Shown here: positions 6,285-63,631 of the stretch, piece by piece | Numbering within the stretch: the stretch's first letter is position 1 | How the letters are laid out: every line of letters starts with the position of its first letter | NCBI GenBank assembly: GCA_964016885.1 | Contig: OZ024749.1 | Span: 7,812,001 to 7,876,000 of the forward strand | Direction: 5' to 3' | DNA from: Eledone cirrhosa | Lineage: Eukaryota | Length of the DNA: 64,000 bases | The notes under the pieces: model-generated | What the model was told of the DNA's origin: nothing | The model's input: the letters and a program-made list of their open reading frames with translations, nothing else | Databases searched by the model: none | Program-made: the position numbers and the translations under genes

Positions 6285-6378
6285 TAGAGAATCGTAAAAG
6301 CACATAACGTTATATGCTTTTTCTATGAAAATTAGTAGTGGGCAGACTAATTTGCATAGAAAGGCCGGAAGATAGGTA

Positions 6379-6423
6379 AATATTGCTGATGAGATGTAAC
6401 AACATCGAAACTAGTTCAATATT
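6379..6423 (+). ncRNA. Type I hammerhead ribozyme (intact core)
   Basis: AATATTG-CTGATGA-GATGT-AACA-ACATC-GAA-ACTAGT-T-CAATATT: 7-bp helix I, 5-bp helix II, palindromic helix III, GUU site. Confidence 0.88.
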
Positions 6424-6657
6424 CCTTGTCTGGCTTTCTGGAGAATAGAGGAAATGTGTTTCCTCAAAAACCAGTATGACTCTAAAAACCGGTTTGTCTG
6501 TGTGTTTACATACAGAATAGCTGGACACTCACAGTAAAGTGACCAGTGAAAAACTCGGTACATCTACATATGTATACGTGTGTGTATTCATATGCATACT
6601 AGTATTTCAGTATACATATGTGGATGTACATTTTTAACTTAATTATATATATATACA

Positions 6658-6883
6658 TTTAGCAGTATTAGTTGTAGATGTTATCGAGATGCAAGTGACA
6701 TAATACCAGCAGAAATTAGAGATGAAATATACGTTTATTTTTTGTTGTAGCACAAACAATGGTGTTGTACAGAGGCTGGTATCTGGCGTGTGATCTGTCG
6801 GCTTTCCAGTGGCTGTCTGTCTTTTTTTTCTGTCGTGCTCAACCGGCGTTGTTCTATCAAAGAGCGTGAGGTGTCTTACTACA
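6658..6883 (-). repeat. 3' LTR
   Basis: Direct repeat of 11939-12164 with 9 substitutions by manual alignment. Confidence 0.95.
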
Positions 6884-7112
6884 GTACCTCGAGCCAGATT
6901 TTCAAATTATTGAAAATCGATGTCATTACTCACATGTGGAGTAAGATGGCGAACAATGCAACAAGGGGGAGCTATCCGCTCTAGCAAAAATTGAATCCAG
7001 AATAAGGATTTGAAAAATGTTAAAAAAAAAAACCGACATGCATGCATAAAAAAAACAAGACAAAGGAATAGCAGAAACACAGAGGCAAAAAAAAAGGTGC
7101 AGCTAACATAGT

Positions 7113-10100
7113 CTAAATATAGACGGTGCTGCACAGTTTTTTGGGCCAGTGGACCCTACGACCTGAACGGGTTGTGGTCTTGTAACGTGGCGATGGTGGT
7201 GGTGTAGGGACAGGCGATGATGGTGGATCAGGAACCGTCGTTCGCTCAACAGGCAAATACGAAGGGGTTCGTGGATCAGGAACCACAGCGTCCGTATCAA
7301 GGTGCGCCTGCTTAAGCCTGTCTAATGTAACTGTCACCCTGGACCCCTTAATATCTAACGTGAAATGCTTAGCCGTGCGCGCTAAGACACGGTAAGGTCC
7401 AGTGTAAGGCTGTGTGAGCGGGGGCTTCACCGTATCATTCCTTACAAAGACATGCGTCCACGAGGCAATATCCCTCGGGACAGCAGTCTTGACAGATTGT
7501 TTCCTAGTGTCCATTGGCGGCAAATCCTGGAAATAGGAGCACAAACGGGACACGTAGGAAGCGTGATCTTGGGCATCAAGATCGATAGGGGCAAGCATTT
7601 GCCCGGGCAACGTCAGAGGGGCACCGTACAGTACTTCGGCCGGTGAAAATCCAAAGTCGACCTTCACCGTTGACCGAATCCCTAGTAGCACAATAGGGAG
7701 GTACTCGCTCCAATGCGCCGAGTCCATTGAGGCCATTAAGGAGGCCTTCAGTTGGCGGTGAAAACGCTCCACCATACCATTCGAAGCGGGATGGTATGCC
7801 GTAGTTCGAATGCGTTTAGCACCAATTATTTTTGACAGCTCGAGGAAAAGGCTCAACTCGAACTGTCGTCCACGGTCGGTAGTTATTGTGGATGGAACTC
7901 CATAACGAGAGATCCATCCAGACACAAGAGCACGTGCTGTTGTCTCCGCGGTGATGTTTTTCAAGGGGATGGCCTCAGGCCATCTCGAAAAACGGTCAAT
8001 GACGGTAAGTAGATAAGAAAAACCATCGCTGACAGGCCAAGGTCCCACTATGTCAATATGAATATGCGAAAAACGCGCATCTGGGTTAGCAAAGGTACCC
8101 AGGGGAGCCTTGACGTGTCAATGGACCTTTGATCTCTGGCAAGCGACGCAGGAACGGCACCAAGCAGCAATTTCACGCCTCATATTTGGCCAGAAAAATC
8201 TAGCTGATATGAGCTTTGCTGTGGCAGAAGATCCTGGATGCGAGATACAATGTAATCCCAGAAACACGGTCCGACGATGATTCTCTGGAACGAAGGGCCT
8301 AGGCACGTCCAAAGAGACGTCGCAGAGAATTTGGCCAACTGCAGTCGACAGAGGCAAGTATTTCATCTCGCAATTCGCAAACTCAGGCGATGTGACATCC
8401 AATGACTCAAGGGGAGGCTGATCCGCAGCCAAACGAGTCAGATCTATGTCAGAGGGTGACGAGATCGCTGTCACGGGTAAGCGGGACAAAGCATCGGCCG
8501 CTGTATTTAGTGAAGCCGGAATGTGCTGGATATCACTCGTATATTGCGAGATGAAATCAAGGTGTCTCGTCTCTCTGGGCGAATATTTATCCGCCTTCGC
8601 TCTCAAAGCAAAAGTCAATGGTTTATGGTCAGTGAGGATAGTAAATTGTCTACCCTCTAGCACATGTGAAAAATGTTTCACGGCCAAATAGATGGCTAAA
8701 AGCTCTCTTCCAAAGGTGCTGTAGCGCGTCTCAGCAGGATTTAGCTTTTTGGAAAAAAACTCCAGCGGTTGCTGGTAACCATTGAAGTTTTGCTGTAGTA
8801 CTGCGCCCACAGCGATATCCGATGCATCAACACAAAGCGTTAGCTTTGCACCGGGTACCGGATGAGTCAGTAACGAAGCATTAGCCAAAACAGTTTTGGC
8901 GTGCTGAAAATCAGCAAGTTGAGTGTCTGTCAAAGAAATATCTTTGTTCTTCCTCCGACAATTTTTCAAAATTTCTGTCAGGGAGAAGAGCAACTTGGCA
9001 CAATTTGGCACGAAACGCCTATAAAAGTTAACCAGACCTAAGAACTGGCGTAACTGACGTAGTGAGGTCTGTGGAGGCAAATCCTCTATGACCTTAACTC
9101 GCTCAGGCCGGGGTCGAATTCCGTCAGCATCGATGACGTGACCCAAGAAAGTCAGTGACTCAGCGCCAAAAACACATTTGGGTGCATTAAGCTGCACGTT
9201 ATACGCCTTCAATCGGCGGAAAAGAAGATTCAAATGGTGCGTATGCTGCTCTGGAGAAGAACTAGCAATGAGCAGATCGTCAATATAGGTATAGACGAAA
9301 TCGAGGCCGCGAGTAACCTCATCCATAAACCGCTGAAAAGTACTAGCAGCATTCCTTAATCCGAACGGCATAGTCAAAAACTCGAAAGACCCAAATGGCG
9401 TAACTATAGCCGTTTTTGGAATGTCACTTTTATGGACAGGAATTTGATGGTACGCACGAATTAAATCCAGTTTGGAGAATATCTTGCATCCCTGCAACGA
9501 AGACGCAAAGTCTTGCAGATGAGGGATAGGATAACGGTCCGGTACCGTTATCGAATTCAGGCGTCGATAATCTCCAGTAGGTCTCCAATCGCCATTCGCT
9601 TTCGGTACCATGTGTAATGGGGACGCCCACGGGCTCGTGGACGGACGAATAATCCCCATTTGCAGCATATGATCAAATTCTGATCGTGCTGCTTTGAGTT
9701 TGTCCGGAGGCAAGCGACGAGGGCGAGAGAAAACGGGAGCACCAGTTGTAGATATGAAGTGCTCCGTGGTATGAGTAGGTTCATCAAATCGAAAATTCCC
9801 CTGTGTCAGTTGCGGGAACGAGTTCAACAACGCATGGAAAGGATCACCGGTGTTAGCAAGAAAAAATATCGGGCTAACCGTTGGGACTCCTGCTGCCTTG
9901 CCAACAACAGTTAATCCCGTGATGCCATCAATTAGGCGTTTACCACGAAGGTCCACCGTCAATGAAAAATGGTGGAGAAAATCCGCGCCTAGAATCGGAT
10001 ACGGCAAGGCAGCGACAGTAAATATCCATTTAAACTCGCGCCGCAGATTACGAAACTGCAAAGGTAACGAGATTTGTCCGAAAGTTCAAATCGGCGAACA

Positions 10101-10304
10101 ATTTACTGCTTGCAACTCAATAGGCGTCTCAGGGGGAGTCTCCTTCATACAACACACAGGCCATACGGAACAAGCTGCACCTGTGTCAACCAGAAAAGCT
10201 CTACCTGACAGCAGGTCCTCAATGAAAAAGTGGCGGTTAGATGTTTCGCAGAGCGCACTATCCGCCGTTAGTGACTCTGGTCGTCTTTTCCCTCGTAAGC
10301 ACAA
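7113..10304 (-). pseudogene. pol: pol: protease, RT, RNase H, integrase; two in-frame stops
   Basis: FLVDTGAA; [21 protein letters not shown]; DASD..RELLAI; HPG..C..C; [22 protein letters not shown]; GPY. TGA stops at 10086-10088 and 8118-8120. Confidence 0.95.
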
Positions 10305-11046
10305 GGAGGCCTACAACGGGCGGCTTTCTTACCATATCTTTCATGGTAATAACAATATGTTGTTCCTGGTGTGTTGGAAGGGCCACGGTGGCGAGAAGTT
10401 GAATAACGTCGAGAACGGCTCCTCTGCTGTCCAAAGGAACTGAATTCCGTGCACAACTCCGCCATTTGACGAGTCATGGCTTCCATAGTGGTGATTAATT
10501 TGTCATCAGACGCTGATGAGCGTGATTGAGGAAGAGAAGAGGAAGCAACGTACTTTGGCTTCGAAGTGTCTCTCTTCGTCACCTCTACAATTTTGTCAGC
10601 AGAGACAGCAATGTGATCCAGGGTATTCACCTCTAGCATATGGGCTAGGATCGCCTGTACCTCTTGAGGTAGGCGAGAGAAGAACAATTGCTTCAGTAAA
10701 GGGCTATCCTGATCTTGGGAGCGCTCAAATCCCGCAAATGCCGGAGAAAAGCGGTTGGGGTCCTGTCACCTAATCGTTCGTCCTCGATCAGTGACCGAAA
10801 ACGACTCTCTACCGACTTACAATTCCTCCTCAAAATCTCGCCCTTCAAAAACTCATACGTCAAGTCAAAGGGGGGGGGGTCTGTAATTAGGTATTGGACC
10901 GAATCTGCTAGATTAGGGGGAAGGCCGCTAATCAGTACAGCGAGGCGCTGGTCAGATTCGGTCTTACAGACCGTAAAATACGCCTGTAACTGGGCAAACC
11001 ACATTTTAGGTTTTCCAGTAAAGGCGGGCAAATGTGGTACATTCAT
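10268..11046 (-). pseudogene. gag: gag (frameshifted near 10720)
   Basis: LPAFTGKPKMWFAQLQAYF, LGDRTPTAFLRHLR, FFSRLPQEVQAIL, CYYHERYGKKAARCRPPC. Confidence 0.88.
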
Positions 11047-11922
11047 GTCAACTTTTAAAATCAAAACAAATATATACATATATATCGAAAGAGCAATTAA
11101 TGCACCCTTGTACAGTGAAAAGAGAACAGCCAATATTGAGAAAAAGTTAACGGGCAAAAAGAAACCGACATTCAAAACATAAGGAAATATTCAAAATACA
11201 TAAAATACAGATATATATCTTTTAAAAAAAAATGTTTCTTTCAACGTCTGTCCCCTCGCGTTGCTTCAACGAACCAGCCAAATCAAATAAGGTAAAAAAG
11301 AGGAAGAAAAAAAATGTTGTTTTTTTTTTTAAATATATCCGCGTTGGATATCAACAAAGGTAGCCAGTGGCTAAAAATCCCTTAGAAAAAGGTAAGGCAT
11401 GTATATCCCCATGCGGGGCAGTTATGTTCACAAAAAAAAGTTTAGTCTCTTCTCTCTTGATCAGTCATGGAACACACACGCAATTCAAAATATGTGTCCG
11501 TCACAAAACTGGGAAGGAACGCAACGCCACCTTGGAAAAATACACTTTTTCTTTTTTCTTCTGTAAGTTGCGAAAAAGTTGGCAACGGAAATGGAATATT
11601 CAAGTGAATAAAAAAAAGTTGCTCTAAATTATCGACACGAATGAATCGTTTTGATATTTCCGATGTGTGGTGGTTTGCGTCGGTAAGGATATGAAGCTGC
11701 CACTCACTATTCCCTGTTTTGGTCAGGGGTTAAACAATGTTGTCGCTGCTGATGCTGCTGTCGTTGTTGTTGTCGATTGTAGCAAAAAATCTTTTGAAAT
11801 ACTACTAACTTTTCGATAATTTTAAAAGGAATATTTTTTATTTTCACAAGTTGCAAAAAAAAAAGGCCGACAATGTGGCAATAAAAGTTCAATTGATGAA
11901 AAAGAAGGGCTGCGTTAAATTC

Positions 11923-11937
11923 TTACGTCGGTCGCCA
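11923..11937 (-). promoter_or_regulatory. Primer binding site TGGCGACCGACGTAA (degenerate tRNA-Trp-like, or tRNA-Arg-like)
   Basis: TGG starts 1 nt inside the 5' LTR boundary. Confidence 0.7.
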
Positions 11938-11938
11938 C

Positions 11939-12164
11939 TTTAGCAGTATTAGTTGTAGATGTTATCGAGATGCGAGTGACATAATAACAGCAGAAATTAG
12001 AGATGAAATATACGTTTATTTTTTGTTATAGCACAAACAATGGTGTTGTACAGAGGCTGGTATCTGGCGTGTGATCCGTCGGCTTTCCAGTGGCTGTCTG
12101 TCTTTTCTTTCTGGCGTTCTCAACCGGCGTTGTTCTATCAAGGAGCGTGAGGCGTCTTACTACA
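11939..12164 (-). repeat. 5' LTR
   Basis: Begins TGTAGTAAG on the minus strand, contains AATAAA and is followed by the PBS. Confidence 0.95.
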
Positions 12165-12211: not shown

Positions 12212-16490
<4,279 letters not shown>

Positions 16491-18159: not shown

Positions 18160-18485
18160 ATATTGTTATGCTTTGGGAGTGTCATGTTGCCAATAAGAAA
18201 CACACGCACCAGTTGTTTCACGTCAATTTATTATAATAAATTTATAAGTTTCTGGTTGGTTGGTTGATTCCACAACCAGATAGTTGTTTATATATAGTCA
18301 TAGTTCCACAACCAGATAGTTGTTTATATATAGTCATAGTTCTTTCGTCACACACTCTGTGACCTCTTCAGTGACTGGGGATTCCCTCTTTGTTTCTATG
18401 CCTCTCCTTTGTTCTATCCTACAATATCGGTTTCAACACACGATTTCAGATAAAGAATCTTGCTAAACAAATTCAGAAACGAAAT
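18160..18485 (-). mobile_element. Family A copy with internal duplication and inverted terminus
   Basis: Homologous to 15368-15620; 18420-18485 is the reverse complement of 15311-15374. Confidence 0.8.
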
Positions 18486-32392: not shown

Positions 32393-32411
32393 TATATATA
32401 TATATATATAT

Positions 32412-34100
32412 ACGATATTAAACAAATGGAAACTATATTTATATTTATAAAACCATATTTATTTCGTTATATATATTTCTGGGATATCATATTAAAAATA
32501 TGTTATGCCTTCCTCAGACAAAATACAATACATAAGCTGTTTTATAAATAATTGGTGACATACCTTGTGATAATGCAACTTCCTTTTAAAAAGTTGATTT
32601 GGTAGTGAAACTGTTATGATAGTTATATAGAAAGAAAACGAAGATGAGAAGAAGAAGATGAAGAGATGTATGCAAATAAAAAAAGAAGAAGATGAAGAGA
32701 TGTATGCAAAGAAAAACAACGGAGCGAGATAGAGAGACAAGGAGAGAGAGAAATACATTGATGGTGAAAAAACATAGTAGGCTGCTTTTTGACAGATGAT
32801 CATCGTATATGTGAGAGGTTAAGGGAAGGGATACAGTTAAATTAGTGTATAGGAGAAAAAGAAAGAAAGATGATATATTTAAAATATATTGAAAATATAT
32901 TATGTCTCATCCATTTGAATTATCAATTTTTATGAATTAGGTATTATAATGTAAATATCAGTATTCATGAATGAGACACATATCCATAATGTGTGAAAAA
33001 AAAAAAATTGACCACATGCTCAGTTAAAAATGTTTAGGTCTATAAGCAAAATCTGAGATAAAACTTCAAACATAAGTATATATGCATTCTCGTGAAGAAA
33101 GAGAAAAGCGAAGGTTATCTCAAATTCAAGTTGATAAATATAGACGCACATGTGAACCTACGTGATACGCTGCACTGATTCTTATATTTCATGAAAAACT
33201 TCAATGCGTTAGAAAAGATTCCACCCTACATACATTTACATACATATATACATATATATAGACACAAAACATATAAGATATACATTAACATCTAAAATAA
33301 CATTCCAGCCTCACTTGCATGATCATCGATCAAGCATAGAGTAGACAACAGATATCAATATTAAAATTAAAAACGCCAAGAATATCTTCGTCACTCCACA
33401 GAGTATCTAGGGACGCAAGAGAACATAGTATGCCACGCATATCGGTCATAGAATCAGAGTCAAAAGCAAACAAAACCAAAATTGTTCATCAAGCCTTATT
33501 TAGCAGAAATCATTCAAAACTTATTCTACAAATGCTCTTATATTTATTATAGAAGTTTATCCAGCTTAAAAAATGTATTCAAAAGATTGGGGACAACGCC
33601 AATTATAGGGTAGTTTATTTAATCTCATTAATTATATATTCATGCAGAAAGGTTTTAAAAAAAAAAATTTAAGGAATCGAAAGATTTATCGCCAAGTATC
33701 ACAAATAGTCAAATACCTTAAGTAAATATACTACATTTTATATTACATTTTAAATTTATATTTATATTTAAATGTTGAGTTCAATCTAAGTCTGCAACAG
33801 CTGAATAAATTGGTTCGTAAATTAAGGGAATTTTTAGAAGGAAGTTGCATTATCACAAGGTATGTCACTAATTATTTATAAAACAGCTTATGTATTGTAT
33901 TTTGTCTGAGGAAGGCATAACATATTTTTAATATGATATCCCAGAAATATATATAACGAAATAAATATGGTTTTATAAATATAAATATAGTTTCCATTTG
34001 TTTAATATCGTAAACCTACTCCAGAAACTGTTGAGTGCTTTTATATCAGTTATAAAATATTTACTCGTTGTAACCCAACAATCTTAAATAAAACTTTTGC
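32412..34100 (+). mobile_element. Decayed Penelope-like element (family C) with inverted 5' copy of the terminal repeat
   Basis: Inverted arms ~32412-32585 and ~33838-34011; CTGAGGA...GAAATATA hammerhead-like core at 33906-33951; faint GIY-YIG-like remnant (RQEYLR, ISRDAREH) at ~33340-33570. Confidence 0.6.
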
Positions 34101-38040: not shown

Positions 38041-38171
38041 ATTTCGGATATATTTATATATATATATATATATATATAAGCAAAGGGATATTTAATTTGT
38101 TGGTAATTCAGCAAATATATATATTTATATCTGATTCGAAGCACTCGACAGATTTTCTGTAGTATAATATC

Positions 38172-38537
38172 AATGATATTAATAAATGGAAACTATATTT
38201 ATAAAACCATATTTATTCTATTATATATTTCAAGGGTACCAAAACTTTGGTACGCTCTCATCAGATAAAATACAAAGTTTGTTTTATAAACATTGACATA
38301 TCCAGGAACGAGATCTTAACGGTTCAAATTTTAACTGGATAGTCTATCAAGTTTTACCTGGATAGACTATCCAGGTAAAACTTGAACCAATAAGATCTCG
38401 TCCCTGGATATGTCAATATTTATAAAACAAATTTTGTATTTTATCTGATGAGACCGCACCAACGTGTCGGTACTCTTGAAATATATATAATAGAATAAAT
38501 ATGGTTTTATAAATATAGTTTCCATTTATTTAATATC

Positions 38538-38540
<3 letters not shown>
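38172..38540. mobile_element. Family C-related palindrome with diverged arms, each with an HHR-like core
   Basis: CTGATGA-GAGCGTACCAAAGTTTTGGTACCCTT-GAAATATA (minus, ~38220-38272) and a variant at 38445-38490; central hairpin at 38348-38385. Confidence 0.75.
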
Positions 38541-41798: not shown

Positions 41799-42827
<1,029 letters not shown>

Positions 42828-45800
42828 TTAGAAATTGGAATAAATGCTCTGAAATAGCGATATATATGTGAATATAGACATAGAATATTCGAAAATATTC
42901 TGTATGTTTATAATAAACATTTTGAAGACCTAATCGCTATAGAATAGAATACGTCACGTATTACAATTAGATTCTCGATAAAAGCAAGGGAAGTAATCTA
43001 CGCGTTTCATTCTTGTTAGAAATCGTCAGGACTACATATCCAGTGCTTTTATCGAGAATGACACAGCTAGAGACTTATAGAATACTTAGCTGTGTACAGG
43101 AACTGGTTTGAAAGAGCGGTTGCCGGTCCGGCAGAAATTAGAAATTGGAATAAATGCTCTGAAATAGCGATATATATGTGAATATAGACATAGAATATTC
43201 GAAAATATTCTGTATATTTATAATAAACATTTTGAAGACCTAATCGCTATAGAATAGAATACGTCACGTATTACAATTAGATTCTCGATAAAAGCAAGGG
43301 AAGTAATCTACGCGTTTCATTCTTGTTAGAAATCATCAGGACTACATATCCAGTGCTTTTATCGAGAATGACACAGCTAGAGACTTATAGAATACTTAGC
43401 TGTGTACAGAAACTGGTTTGAAAGAGCGGTTGCCGGTCCGGCAGAAATTAGAAATTGGAATAAATGCTCTGAAATAGCGATATATATGTGAATATAGACA
43501 TAGAATATTCGAAAATATTCTGTATGTTTATAATAAACATTTTGAAGACCTAATCGCTATAGAATAGAATACGTCACGTATTACAATTAGATTCTCGATA
43601 AAAGCAAGGGAAGTAATCTACGCGTTTGATTCTTGTTAGAAATCATCAGGACTACATATCCAGTGCTTTTATCGAGAATGACACAGCTAGAGACTTATAG
43701 AATACTTAGCTGTGTACAGGAACTGGTTTGAAAGAGCGGTTGCCGGTCCGGCAGAAATTAGAAATTGGAATAAATGCTCTGAAATAGCGATATATATGTG
43801 AATATAGACATAGAATATTCGAAAATATTCTGTATGTTTATAATAAACATTTTGAAGACCTAATCGCTATAGAATAGAATACGTCACGTATTACAATTAG
43901 ATTCTCGATAAAAGCAAGGGAAGTAATCTACGCGTTTCATTCTTGTTAGAAATCATCAGGACTACATATCCAGTGCTTTTATCGAGAATGACACAGCTAG
44001 AGACTTATAGAATACTTAGTTCTAACAAGAATGAAACGCGTAGATTACTTCCCTTGCTTTTATCGAGAATCTAATTGTAATACGTGACGTATTCTATTCT
44101 ATAGCGATTAGGTCTTCAAAATGTTTATTATAAACATACAGAATATTTTCGAATATTCTATGTCTATATTCACATATATATCGCTATTTCAGAGCATTTA
44201 TTCCAATTTCTAATTTCTGCCGGACCGGCAACCGCTCTTTCAAACCAGTTCCTGTACACAGCTAAGTATTCTATAAGTCTCTAGCTGTGTCATTCTCGAT
44301 AAAAGCACTGGATATGTAGTCCTGATGATTTCTAACAAGAATGAACGCGTAGATTACTTCCTTGCTTTTATCGAGAATCTAATTGTAATACGTGACGTAT
44401 TCTATTCTATAGCGATTAGGTCTTCAAAATGTTTATTATAAACATACAGAATATTTTCGAATATTCTATGTCTATATTCACATATATATCGCTATTTCAG
44501 AGCATTTATTCCAATTTCTAATTTCTGCCGGACCGGCAACCGCTCTTTCAAACCAGTTCCTGTACACAGCTAAGTATTCTATAAGTCTCTAGCTGTGTCA
44601 TTCTCGATAAAAGCACTGGATATGTAGTCCTGATGATTTCTAACAAGAATGAAACGCGTAGATTACTTCCCTTGCTTTTATCGAGAATCTAATTGTAATA
44701 CGTGACGTATTCTATTCTATAGCGATTAGGTCTTCAAAATGTTTATTATAAACATACAGAATATTTTCGAATATTCTATGTCTATATTCACATATATATC
44801 GCTATTTCAGAGCATTTATTCCAATTTCTAATTTCTGCCGGACCGGCAACCGCTCTTTCAAACCAGTTCCTGTACACAGCTAAGTATTCTATAAGTCTCT
44901 AGCTGTGTCATTCTCGATAAAAGCACTGGATATGTAGTCCTGATGATTTCTAACAAGAATGAAACGCGTAGATTACTTCCTTGCTTTTATCGAGAATCTA
45001 ATTGTAATACGTGACGTATTCTATTCTATAGCGATTAGGTCTTCAAAATGTTTATTATAAACATACAGAATATTTTCGAATATTCTATGTCTATATTCAC
45101 ATATATATCGCTATTTCAGAGCATTTATTCCAATTTCTAATTTCTGCCGGACCGGCAACCGCTCTTTCAAACCAGTTCCTGTACACAGCTAAGTATTCTA
45201 TAAGTCTCTAGCTGTGTCATTCTCGATAAAAGCACTGGATATGTAGTCCTGATGATTTCTAACAAGAATGAAACGCGTAGATTACTTCCCTTGCTTTTAT
45301 CGAGAATCTAATTGTAATACGTGACGTATTCTATTCTATAGCGATTAGGTCTTCAAAATGTTTATTATAAACATACAGAATATTTTCGAATATTCTATGT
45401 CTATATTCACATATATATCGCTATTTCAGAGCATTTATTCCAATTTCTAATTTCTGCCGGACCGGCAACCGCTCTTTCAAACCAGTTCCTGTACACAGCT
45501 AAGTATTCTATAAGTCTCTAGCTGTGTCATTCTCGATAAAAGCACTGGATATGTAGTCCTGATGATTTCTAACAAGAATGAAACGCGTAGATTACTTCCC
45601 TTGCTTTTATCGAGAATCTAATTGTAATACGTGACGTATTCTATTCTATAGCGATTAGGTCTTCAAAATGTTTATTATAAACATACAGAATATTTTCGAA
45701 TATTCTATGTCTATATTCACATATATATCGCTATTTCAGAGCATTTATTCCAATTTCTAATTTCTGCCGGACCGGCAACCGCTCTTTCAAACCAGTTCCT

Positions 45801-46028
45801 GTACACAGCTAAGTATTCTATAAGTCTCTAGCTGTGTCATTCTCGATAAAAGCACTGGATATGTAGTCCTGATGATTTCTAACAAGAATGAAACGCGTAG
45901 ATTACTTCCCTTGCTTTTATCGAGAATCTAATTGTAATACGTGACGTATTCTATTCTATAGCGATTAGGTCTTCAAAATGTTTATTATAAACATACAGAA
46001 TATTTTCGAATATTCTATGTCTATATTT
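42828..46028. repeat. Inverted tandem array of a 310-bp hammerhead-containing unit (retrozyme-like)
   Basis: Period 310 (42831, 43141, 43451, 43761); inversion at 44019/44020; then ~6.5 copies in the opposite orientation (period 308-310). Confidence 0.95.
44624..44666 (+). ncRNA. Type I hammerhead in the 310-bp unit; also at 44316, 44934, 45243, 45553, 45863 (+) and 42993, 43303, 43613, 43923 (-)
   Basis: GTAGTC-CTGATGA-TTTCT-AACA-AGAAT-GAA-ACGCGT-A-GATTAC, with helix I extended by ATTCTCGATAAAAGCA/TGCTTTTATCGAGAAT. Confidence 0.87.
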
Positions 46029-47412
<1,384 letters not shown>

Positions 47413-60347: not shown

Positions 60348-60642
60348 ATATATATATATATATATATATATATAATGATAATATATATATATATAATAAT
60401 AATGATAATATATATATATATATAATAATAATGATAATATATATATATATATAATAATAATGATAATATATATATATATATATATAATAATGATAATATA
60501 TATATATATATATATAATAATAATGATAATATATATATATATATAATAATAATTGTAATATATATATATATATAATAATATTTGTAATATATATATATAT
60601 ATAATAATAATTGTAATATATATATATATATAATAATAATTG

Positions 60643-60688
<46 letters not shown>

Positions 60689-60696
60689 ATTGTAAT
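60348..60696. repeat. Composite (TA)n-(TAA)n minisatellite
   Basis: Direct reading. Confidence 0.9.
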
Positions 60697-61181
60697 AGTT
60701 GAAAAAAATGAAAACGAAATTTCATTTCTCACTCTTAGTATGGCACTTACTTAAATGTAAGTATGTATGTATACGTACATACATATATGTATACGGACGT
60801 ACAGTAGCATGCATATATATATATATATATACATACAGGTACACATACATATATGCACGCATCAGTTTAGCGGACGCTTATTATAACGCCGCTTTGTTCG
60901 TTTGTCAACAAACTGAATAGCCTGAATTTATGCCATACGGTGTTAAGGCAACCACGTCACCTTTTTGTTCAACACTGACACAGGAACGATGTACTAGTTT
61001 CAAGCTTGTTAGCTATCATCAGCACCGTTTACCCATCTGCCAGATAGTTGAACGTTCGAAAGAATATACTTTCCTTATGAAAATTAACGGCTGAGCAGCC
61101 TAATTTGCATATTGAGTGAGTTAAATCGGTCAGGCATACCGAAATCGATAAGTTGAAAAAAATGAAAACGAAATTTCATTT
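60697..61181 (-). mobile_element. 454-bp monomer plus 31-bp terminal redundancy, HHR-bearing (retrozyme-like)
   Basis: AGTTGAAAAAAATGAAAACGAAATTTCATTT occurs at 60697-60727 and 61151-61181; internal HHR. Confidence 0.78.
60985..61029 (-). ncRNA. Type I hammerhead ribozyme
   Basis: Minus strand: AACGGTG-CTGATGA-TAGCT-AACA-AGCTT-GAA-ACTAGT-A-CATCGTT. Confidence 0.87.
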
Positions 61182-61188
61182 ATAATTG

Positions 61189-61226
<38 letters not shown>

Positions 61227-61257
61227 GTAATATATATATATATATATATATAATAAT

Positions 61258-61443
61258 AATTGTTTCTACTTTAGGCACAAGGCCAGCAATTACCCAGTGT
61301 ATTACTGGTACTTTACTTTATCGACCCCGTAAGGATGAAAGGCAAAGTTAACATCGGCGGGATTTGAACTCAGACCGTAAAGGGACGTAACTATGCTGGA
61401 AAGCATGTCCGACCCTCTACCGATACTGCCATTTCACCGCCCT
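61258..61443 (-). mobile_element. tRNA-derived SINE (family S1)
   Basis: Homology to the other copies. Confidence 0.9.
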
Positions 61444-61730: not shown

Positions 61731-61742
61731 AGTAATAATAAT

Positions 61743-61922
61743 AATTGTTTCTACTTTCGGCACAAGGCCAGCAATTACCCAGTGCATTACTGGTACTTTA
61801 TTTTATCGACCCCGTAAGGATGAAAGGCAAAGTTAACCTCGGCGGGATTTGAACTCAGAATGGCAAGGGCCGTAACTCTATGCGTCAAAGCATGGCGTCC
61901 GACCCTCTAACGATACTGCCAA
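61743..61922 (-). mobile_element. tRNA-derived SINE (family S1)
   Basis: Homology to the other copies. Confidence 0.9.
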
Positions 61923-62435
61923 ATAATAACAATAATATATATATCTTAAAAAACACTTTTCACATATGCGAGATATATCTTATAACTCAATTGAAATAAC
62001 GTTTATGTAGAGCGTATTTTCTGAATATCGAAAACCAGAGTATAGAGCACTCACCTCATTTCTTATTTAAGGTATCTTGCGTTCCTTGAAATCTGTAAAA
62101 AATAAGGTATTCATTATTTCGTATGTTGCTTAAAGTGACTGACGGTGATAGATATGAAAAATGTCATATAACAGCTACCATTTCCCCATCCAAAATATAG
62201 CCCTGCAGAAATATTGCCCTGCAAGACACTATCAAAGGTAAAAGTATCTTAACTCTTGATGAAGTCGTTGGGGTACCTTCCGAGACCCTGCATCCCTGGT
62301 ACATTTAAAACCTTGCACAGCCTAACTCTCCCCTATTAAGTATATATATATATATATAACGAAGGAAATGTGGTAAGGAACCAGGTGGACCATAACGCAC
62401 CAAAGTACTCAATACTTGGGGTAGTAGAGTGGGTA

Positions 62436-62566
62436 ATAGGAACCAGTAAGACCCCGACGGCTGAGCTCAAGCCGTTTCGACGGCTAATTCTGGACCGAAT
62501 TCTGGAGTCCAGAATTAGCCGTCGAAACGGCTTGAGCTCAGCCGTCGGGGTCTTACTGGTTCCTAT
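62436..62566. repeat. Perfect 60-bp-arm inverted repeat with 11-nt spacer, containing the 3' half of a hammerhead
   Basis: The right arm reads GAA-ACGGCT-TGAGCTC-AGCCGT-C-GGGGTC. Confidence 0.9.
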
Positions 62567-62767
62567 ATATATATATATATATATACACAGAACGACATCT
62601 ATTATGAAATTGATATTATAGGGCGGTGGTTGGCAGTATCGGTGGAGCATCGGACACCTTGCTTTGTGGCATAGAGTTATGTACCTTTATGTTCATCATC
62701 ATCAACATCATCGTCATTAATATGTGTTATTTTCATTGCGTGTTGTTGTCACTACATTACCTAATTG

Positions 62768-62995
62768 ACAAGGGTGCTGGTTTGGCAGAATCGGTAGAGC
62801 GTCAGAAATTATTATTTTCGGCATATAGTTATGGCGCTTTACGTTCTGAGTTCAGACACTGGCGTGGTTAGCTTTGCTTTTCATCCTTACCAGGTCGATA
62901 CAATAAAGCACCAGTGATGCACTGGAGTCTATTAAATCAAATCCACTTTATCCATACATTCCAATTCCTGGCATTGTTCCAAAAGTAGAAACAAT
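62768..62995 (+). mobile_element. Older S1-related SINE; an isolated head also lies at 62620-62685
   Basis: TGGCAGAATCGG, GAGTTCAGAC, CTTTTCATCCTTACCAGGTCGATA. Confidence 0.75.
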
Positions 62996-63007
62996 TATTT
63001 TATATTA

Positions 63008-63197
63008 ATTATTTCTACGTTAGGCACAAGTCCAGCAAATACCCAGTGTATTACTGGTACTTTATTTTATCGACCCCGTAAGGATGAAAGGCAAAGCTAA
63101 CCACGGCGGGATTTGAACTCAGAATGGCAAGGGCCGTAACTCTATGCGTCAAAGCATGGCGTGCGACCCTCTACCAATACTGCCAATCCACCGCCAT
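63008..63197 (-). mobile_element. tRNA-derived SINE (family S1)
   Basis: Homology to the other copies. Confidence 0.9.
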
Positions 63198-63631
63198 TAT
63201 TTTATATTAATGTTTAATAATCTTCCATCACCTAAAAATCTATTTTTCCGCCCTCATTGTCACATATTTCTGACATATATCTGTAGCTCTCTTTCTCTCC
63301 TGGACAAATATCTTTAATTATAGTTATGGTTGTATGAGTAAATGATGCTGATGTTTTCATAAGATAAAAGAGCGAATAATTGTGAATATCCAGCTATTTC
63401 ATAGCTCGAGGATAACAGTAATGTAATTGTGTTAAAGAATTGTAGTTCAGCTAAAATAGCACCATTCATTCATCTTTTAATCCGCACCTTCGTATTTCTT
63501 CTTCGCTTTATAGTTCTGAGAAGAGCCTAGATTAATATATCGACAGTCGATCGACTTTCGTCAAATCGGACCGAGGAAACACTGTTTCCATTGGTCATTC
63601 CAATTGCTAATACTCTCTATTGGTCGCAACT

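Follow-up and report, generated by a model that had tools for sequence, protein, structure and literature searches.

The window, by which we mean the whole 64,000-nucleotide stretch of Eledone cirrhosa DNA analyzed here (contig OZ024749.1, positions 7,812,001 to 7,876,000), harbors one copy of a 454-bp repeat unit embedded in a TA-rich minisatellite (Table 1). A repeat search of 60601–61300 returns a 31-nt sequence, found at 60697–60727 and 61151–61181 with a spacing of 454, as the longest exact non-microsatellite repeat in this region, which confirms the exact 31-bp direct repeats, 454 bp apart, of the original prediction. The same TA minisatellite does border both 31-mers, both flanks being (TA)n/TAATAATTGTAA, and the intact internal hammerhead that had been read on the minus strand is located here as a type I motif with a predicted cleavage site 295 nt from the left end. 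The minus strand is the ribozyme-sense strand of the unit.

Table 1. Coordinates of the window copy, its internal features, and its flanks
Feature	Position	Strand	Basis
One 454-bp unit, non-autonomous element	60697..61150	-	Copies at 98-99% identity, head-to-tail arrays
Start of a second round, unit positions 1-31; the insertion's variable (RNA 5′) end	61151..61181	-	Exact repeat and arm mapping
"Tail" between start site A (unit position 452 to 1, window ~60697) and start site B (unit position ~56, window ~60752)	60697..60752	-	Arm starts
Predicted 8-bp hairpin within the tail	60706..60727	-	Folding
Internal TA/TACA microsatellite; pattern usable as array fingerprint	60758..60856	.	Array comparison
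Minimal type I hammerhead, palindromic helix III, predicted cleavage 60992/60991	60985..61029	-	Motif scan and folding
Imperfect inverted repeat with two (presumably) octamer-like words, upstream of the ribozyme	61076..61111	.	Also in second family at 6325-6360
Candidate target-site duplication, left copy, 11 bp	60686..60696	+	Direct repeat just outside 31-mer
Candidate target-site duplication, right copy, 11 bp	61182..61192	+	Direct repeat just outside 31-mer
TA-rich minisatellite target, left flank; right continuation 61182-61255	60348..60696	.	Sequence

In arm mapping, the window copy (L001) extends from unit position 1 through one full round to position 31, corresponding to 1.07 units; it is a single arm from start site A that stopped 31 nt into round two and is an ordinary member of its family. 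This second round halts at the edge of the predicted tail hairpin, and similar stops are found in other arms at unit positions 29, 29, and 32. The ribozyme strand of the unit is predicted to be strongly structured (z of −8.1), partly because of the TA microsatellite.

Hammerhead motif and neighboring repeats

Stem I of the hammerhead pairs 61029–61023 with 60991–60985 and is followed by the core CUGAUGA (61022–61016), a 4-bp stem II, and GAAA from 61001; helix III is palindromic and minimal, and the predicted cleavage site corresponds to unit position 295. An Rfam scan at gathering thresholds found nothing, and below threshold a weak Hammerhead_HH9 match spans 60974–61036 (18.5 bits, E of 0.071). 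A monomer fold that retains stems I and II is predicted at −8.1 kcal/mol versus a minimum of −10.2 kcal/mol, and the dimer cofold at −23.1 kcal/mol; passages of PMC4209133 on minimal hammerheads of Penelope-like elements (PLEs) describe poor cleavage. The ribozyme is the least variable region of the unit (1.7% versus 2.6–4.4%), the cleavage junction hardly varies from copy to copy, and two-sided changes in stem I are found in a sister family that is 80% identical. With the motif intact and conserved, self-cleavage of the transcript is predicted.

Further repeats of related layout are found in the window. A hammerhead family with a 310-bp unit occupies 42827–46038 as two head-to-head blocks of 3.8 and 6.5 copies flanked by TA runs, of which one extends ≈40 nt farther at its outer end; another, with a 252-bp period and long internal hairpins, lies at 15311–16394 and ≈18270–18400, inverted such that one outer end is long and the other short. 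Further PLE-like families are represented at 12214–12570, 32400–34050, and 38170–38540 by short inverted 3′ ends that stand head to head, with hammerheads at 32517/33906 and 38264/38445, and that are related to the 3′ end in L124. At 62341–62570, a long and a short 3′ end of the L121 coding family form an inverted pair; ≈7 further inverted pairs of this kind are present in the analyzed loci, and a motif scan of the L121 family found no hammerhead. A distant sister family at 6290–6650 carries a hammerhead at 6386 and, upstream, the same inverted repeat as the window copy, whose words we take to be octamer-like and which is possibly a promoter or protein-binding site. On the minus strand, ≈6658–12163 resembles an LTR retrotransposon with direct repeats near 6658–6880 and 11940–12163, and contains frames interrupted by stops that are presumably gag-, RT-, and integrase-like. 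Finally, several copies of a ≈185-bp repeat, which we assume to be SINE-like, lie in TA runs at 61253–61437, 61738–61922, and 62770–63198.

Family size, start sites, and class of the element

Across the 3.0-Gb animal genome, a 40-nt ribozyme core has 10,122 exact matches (control, 0), the 454-bp unit forms 7,498 seamless head-to-tail junctions, and end A is joined to (TA)n in 1,408 forward matches and in 2,721 reverse matches, the latter inflated by duplicate rows. These counts bear on the 31-mer, for which a long target-site duplication had been held out as the alternative, to be preferred if the 31-mer were present once at the empty site and absent from other copies. The repeats are indeed exact, direct, and terminal; however, the 31-mer is present in other copies genome-wide, internal to thousands of head-to-tail junctions and at the fixed end of insertions, and the TA minisatellite flanks bear an 11-bp repeat of their own. 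The 31-mer represents unit positions 1–31 and is therefore no target duplication; to the duplication reading we assign a vanishingly small probability. As originally proposed, the 31-mer is element sequence, likely left by copying that continued beyond one unit and across the cleavage site. The 11-bp repeat just outside the 31-mers, unmentioned in the original prediction, is the likelier target-site duplication because other occurrences of its motif in the flanking minisatellite are invariably spaced by long TA runs; it is itself ambiguous because the target is a minisatellite. Contigs of four sequencing runs (3,164 matching contigs in X1, 16 in X6, 1 in X5, and 0 in X4) yielded nothing on circles or an empty site.

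We mapped arms in 120 loci that comprise three groups, namely the best matches to the window copy with extensions, the first ribozyme-core matches on contig C1, and 40 loci chosen for having end A, plus five chosen because they carry rare deletions. We excluded L014, L023, and L030 as overlapping, L083 as empty, and L132 as a coding stretch, and merged four adjacent stretches. L171 gave no arm; the 212 arms counted are those uncut by a locus edge. Arm starts fall at site A (106; unit position 446 to 6), at site B (68; 49–62, ≈56), in the internal TA run (18), or elsewhere (20), such that 174 of the 212 arms start at two fixed sites ≈57 nt apart, an interval corresponding to the Penelope "tail." Both fixed starts usually adjoin (TA)n directly, and the far ends are scattered along the entire unit. 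Almost all inverted copies stand head to head, their fixed ends facing outward (72 pairs, versus two tail-to-tail neighbors). Both starts lie at A or B in 50 of these 72 pairs, the other 22 having a start elsewhere, and the 50 divide into 49 A+B, one A+A, and no B+B, where selection of 40 loci for an A end biases against B+B and not against A+A.

The variable permutation points that the original prediction expected of a circular template are not observed: copying begins at either of two fixed sites within the unit, and variation is confined to the far end. Random permutation of copies is rejected on the same arm starts, and classic twin priming, in which an A arm would end at site B, is rejected as a rule by stops that spread over the unit. 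No pile-up of stops after exactly one round is evident, the density at unit positions 436–60 being like that elsewhere, and the lengths of 38 A arms decay steadily, with 17, 12, 8, 5, 4, 3, and 1 exceeding one to seven units, respectively.

Taken together, a short unit that is repeated in tandem, bears a type I hammerhead in every repeat, and lacks an ORF of at least 120 aa apart from microsatellite frames corresponds to a non-LTR retrozyme. Fixed 3′ ends with variable 5′ truncation, tandem and inverted copies, and an optional tail between two starts, present at one end only (49 of 50 pairs), are Penelope-like, as is the bias for microsatellites, with only 19 A ends matching a pattern that excludes both (TA)n and the internal junction, most of them junction variants. 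A plant LTR retrozyme, with type III hammerheads in LTRs, a PBS, a PPT, and a 4-bp target-site duplication, is rejected on the type I motif, the tandem units, and the lack of an LTR pair. We therefore assign the element with high confidence to the non-LTR retrozymes, as a non-autonomous Penelope-like element. The kind of element is already known and the family itself is new; neither the family nor the A+B count was found in literature searches that covered the main text of openly accessible papers. One array, L129 (G000:C7:36783500-36793499), is old and contains at least 20 diverged units with higher-order repeats, a retrozyme element turning into a satellite, and a larger segmental repeat at G000:C14:25017138-25319465 contains one deletion variant in at least 18 copies, spaced 4–9 kb apart.

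Coding PLEs with RT and GIY-YIG domains are found in the same genome, GIY-YIG ORFs being abundant (150 scored matches among 10,595 candidates). The L120 ORF resembles Atlas clusters with HTH_animal, RVT_1, and GIY-YIG at scores of 0.95–0.98; Pfam gave no match for four candidate ORFs, and a PDB search with one ORF was blank. We take the local PLE ORFs to be Neptune-like. The family of the L120 ORF has two 3′ ends ≈70 nt apart, some coding PLEs have a hammerhead near the 3′ end that joins (TA)n, and two coding PLEs have long and short ends, the same two ends as the retrozyme. In L040 and L061, the L121 family abuts a retrozyme A arm by its short 3′ end in head-to-head orientation; these junctions point to machinery common to both, and such retrozyme/PLE chimeras imply that two arms can derive from different RNAs. 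In L050 (1881–2915), a retrozyme arm is joined at unit position ≈93 to the middle of a PLE RT frame, which suggests a template switch or a nested insertion. Blast against a small sample of 30 GIY-YIG loci and 12 extended loci revealed no coding parent with homology to the unit, the only exception being a nearby 81% sister copy in L108/L125, nor did a pattern search for a non-TA continuation after end A reveal one.

Template for copying beyond one unit

The reading that we consider probable overall is that the window copy is a 1.07-unit retrozyme copied by a PLE enzyme past one round, probably around a circular RNA. Tandem arrays would be transcribed, the transcript would cleave itself in a dimer-dependent manner, and the cleaved unit RNA would be ligated into circles; both target strands would then be nicked, with priming at site A by one strand and at site B by its partner, and the PLE enzyme would start reverse transcription at a fixed internal site and proceed, here, 31 bases into a second round, with insertion into the TA minisatellite and an 11-bp duplication at this locus. 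Circular templates for more-than-unit reverse transcription, and a circular-template model for retrozymes, are already proposed in passages of PMC4209133 and PMC7229834, respectively.

The original prediction left the choice between a circle and a multimer open, and one copy of 1.07 units indeed cannot separate the two; the family-level data lean to the circle, a template that we favor by a narrow measure. Arms stop at unit positions 291–300 in one of 173 cases despite ≈259 passes, and in none of 59 in a set not chosen by the ribozyme, and genome-wide breaks number 68 at the cleavage site versus 113 at a control site 13 nt away, with no excess. This absence of run-off at the cleavage site favors a circle, and conservation of the ribozyme and the steady decay of A-arm lengths count in the same direction. 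So does the mostly clonal makeup of the arrays: compared at 14 subfamily sites, the 82 multi-segment insertions divide into 73 homogeneous and nine mixed ones, paired arms diverge by 1.3% versus 3.2% for unpaired arms, and private variants are fixed in all segments covering the site in 11 insertions, in five of them across both arms. In L126 and L128, which were selected for their deletions, the two arms share them; in a third selected pair (L127, L129) the deletion is not fixed. The nine mixed insertions and the variants confined to some units (L082, L127, L129, L020, and L028) count against a circle because one monomeric circle cannot produce such arrays, and homogeneous donor arrays would also yield homogeneous daughters, which weakens the argument from homogeneity. 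The retrozyme/PLE chimeras, the use of uncleaved RNA by the anole element in vitro, the monomer ribozyme fold lying above the minimum, and the poor cleavage of minimal PLE hammerheads also speak against this reading, as do the failure to find a coding parent and the blank Pfam result. DNA-level turnover is probable as well in large arrays.

With the same element and enzyme, the template might instead be a linear multimer read from a tandem array and left uncleaved, in which case the adjoining upstream unit supplied the 31 nt. The scarcity of stops at the cleavage site fits this template too; long donor arrays of 15–20 units are present, heterogeneous arrays show recurring unit patterns (L082 and L127), and the portions of PMC11167929 on the anole PLE describe use of unprocessed RNA in vitro. 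Against this stand private variants and microsatellite fingerprints fixed in all units of both arms, the conserved ribozyme, and the lack of a stop peak marking a transcript start, and linear copying alone would only shorten arrays, so that we regard this template as rather unlikely. Still less probable, and in our estimation doubtful, is repeated template jumping among cleaved linear monomers, possibly ribozyme dimers, in which the two arms represent two RNAs on a dimeric enzyme. The palindromic helix III and the dimer cofold of −23.1 kcal/mol, the chimeric retrozyme/PLE arms, and a subfamily switch inside one arm in L007 and L028 fit this scheme, but copies show almost no variation at the cleavage junction, breaks are not in excess at the cleavage site, and both arms usually represent one haplotype.

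Returning to the circular template, a more specific form of the model, in which a single PLE ribonucleoprotein primes two nicked strands at different, fixed sides of the tail hairpin (A for one strand, B for the other) on one ribozyme-made circle and rolls in both arms, is offered tentatively, as somewhat short of an even chance. If true, thousands of insertions across the genome would be fossils of rolling-circle target-primed reverse transcription, and PLE tail asymmetry would become a strand-pairing rule and no longer an optional feature. A young family of ≈10^4 units provides countable rules, namely two start sites, the use of both in each inverted insertion, absence of run-off where the ribozyme cleaves, and arrays that are for the most part clonal, which any in vitro or in vivo model of PLE insertion must reproduce. 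The family statistics offer a handle on tandem and inverted PLE insertion and on retrozyme circles as templates, both proposed in print, and the near-strict two-start rule could help to test copying from circular RNA.

Comparison with known systems

Metazoan non-LTR retrozymes, as described in sections of Cervera and de la Pena 2020 (PMC7229834) and Li, Clavereau and Pollet 2026 (bioRxiv 10.64898/2026.07.22.740005), likewise consist of non-coding units a few hundred bp long in tandem, each bearing a type I hammerhead; they are low in GC, range from monomers to long multimers, and co-occur with PLEs, and circular RNA is proposed there as the template for tandem cDNA. The Eledone ribozyme differs in being of the minimal PLE type; the fixed double starts and the A+B rule do not appear in those sections. 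EN+ PLEs, in the parts of Craig et al. 2021 (PMC8557442) on pseudo-LTR/tail architecture, also show truncated 5′ ends, copies that are inverted or partly tandem, insertion into microsatellites, and a tail that is often at only one end, whereas here there is no ORF, the tail is ≈57 nt (theirs, 30–40), and arrays reach at least 15 units. MRC1 and other non-autonomous Chlamys elements, in the same account, are likewise non-autonomous PLEs with multicopy head-to-tail insertions; members of the MRC1 clade are described as lacking canonical hammerheads, in contrast to the Eledone unit, and as resembling autonomous partners at the 3′ end, and no such partner was found here.

A further parallel concerns Anolis Poseidon PAc, for which passages of Frangieh et al. 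2024 (PMC11167929) describe two adjacent internal RT starts that bound the tail downstream of the hammerhead, AT-rich targets, and cutting and extension of both strands, as in Eledone, where both strands would likewise be cut and extended. In that in vitro system uncleaved RNA was inserted, and ribozyme mutants had no effect on insertion. For PAc, the two strands showed no difference in start site, whereas in the Eledone family the two arms almost always use different sites.
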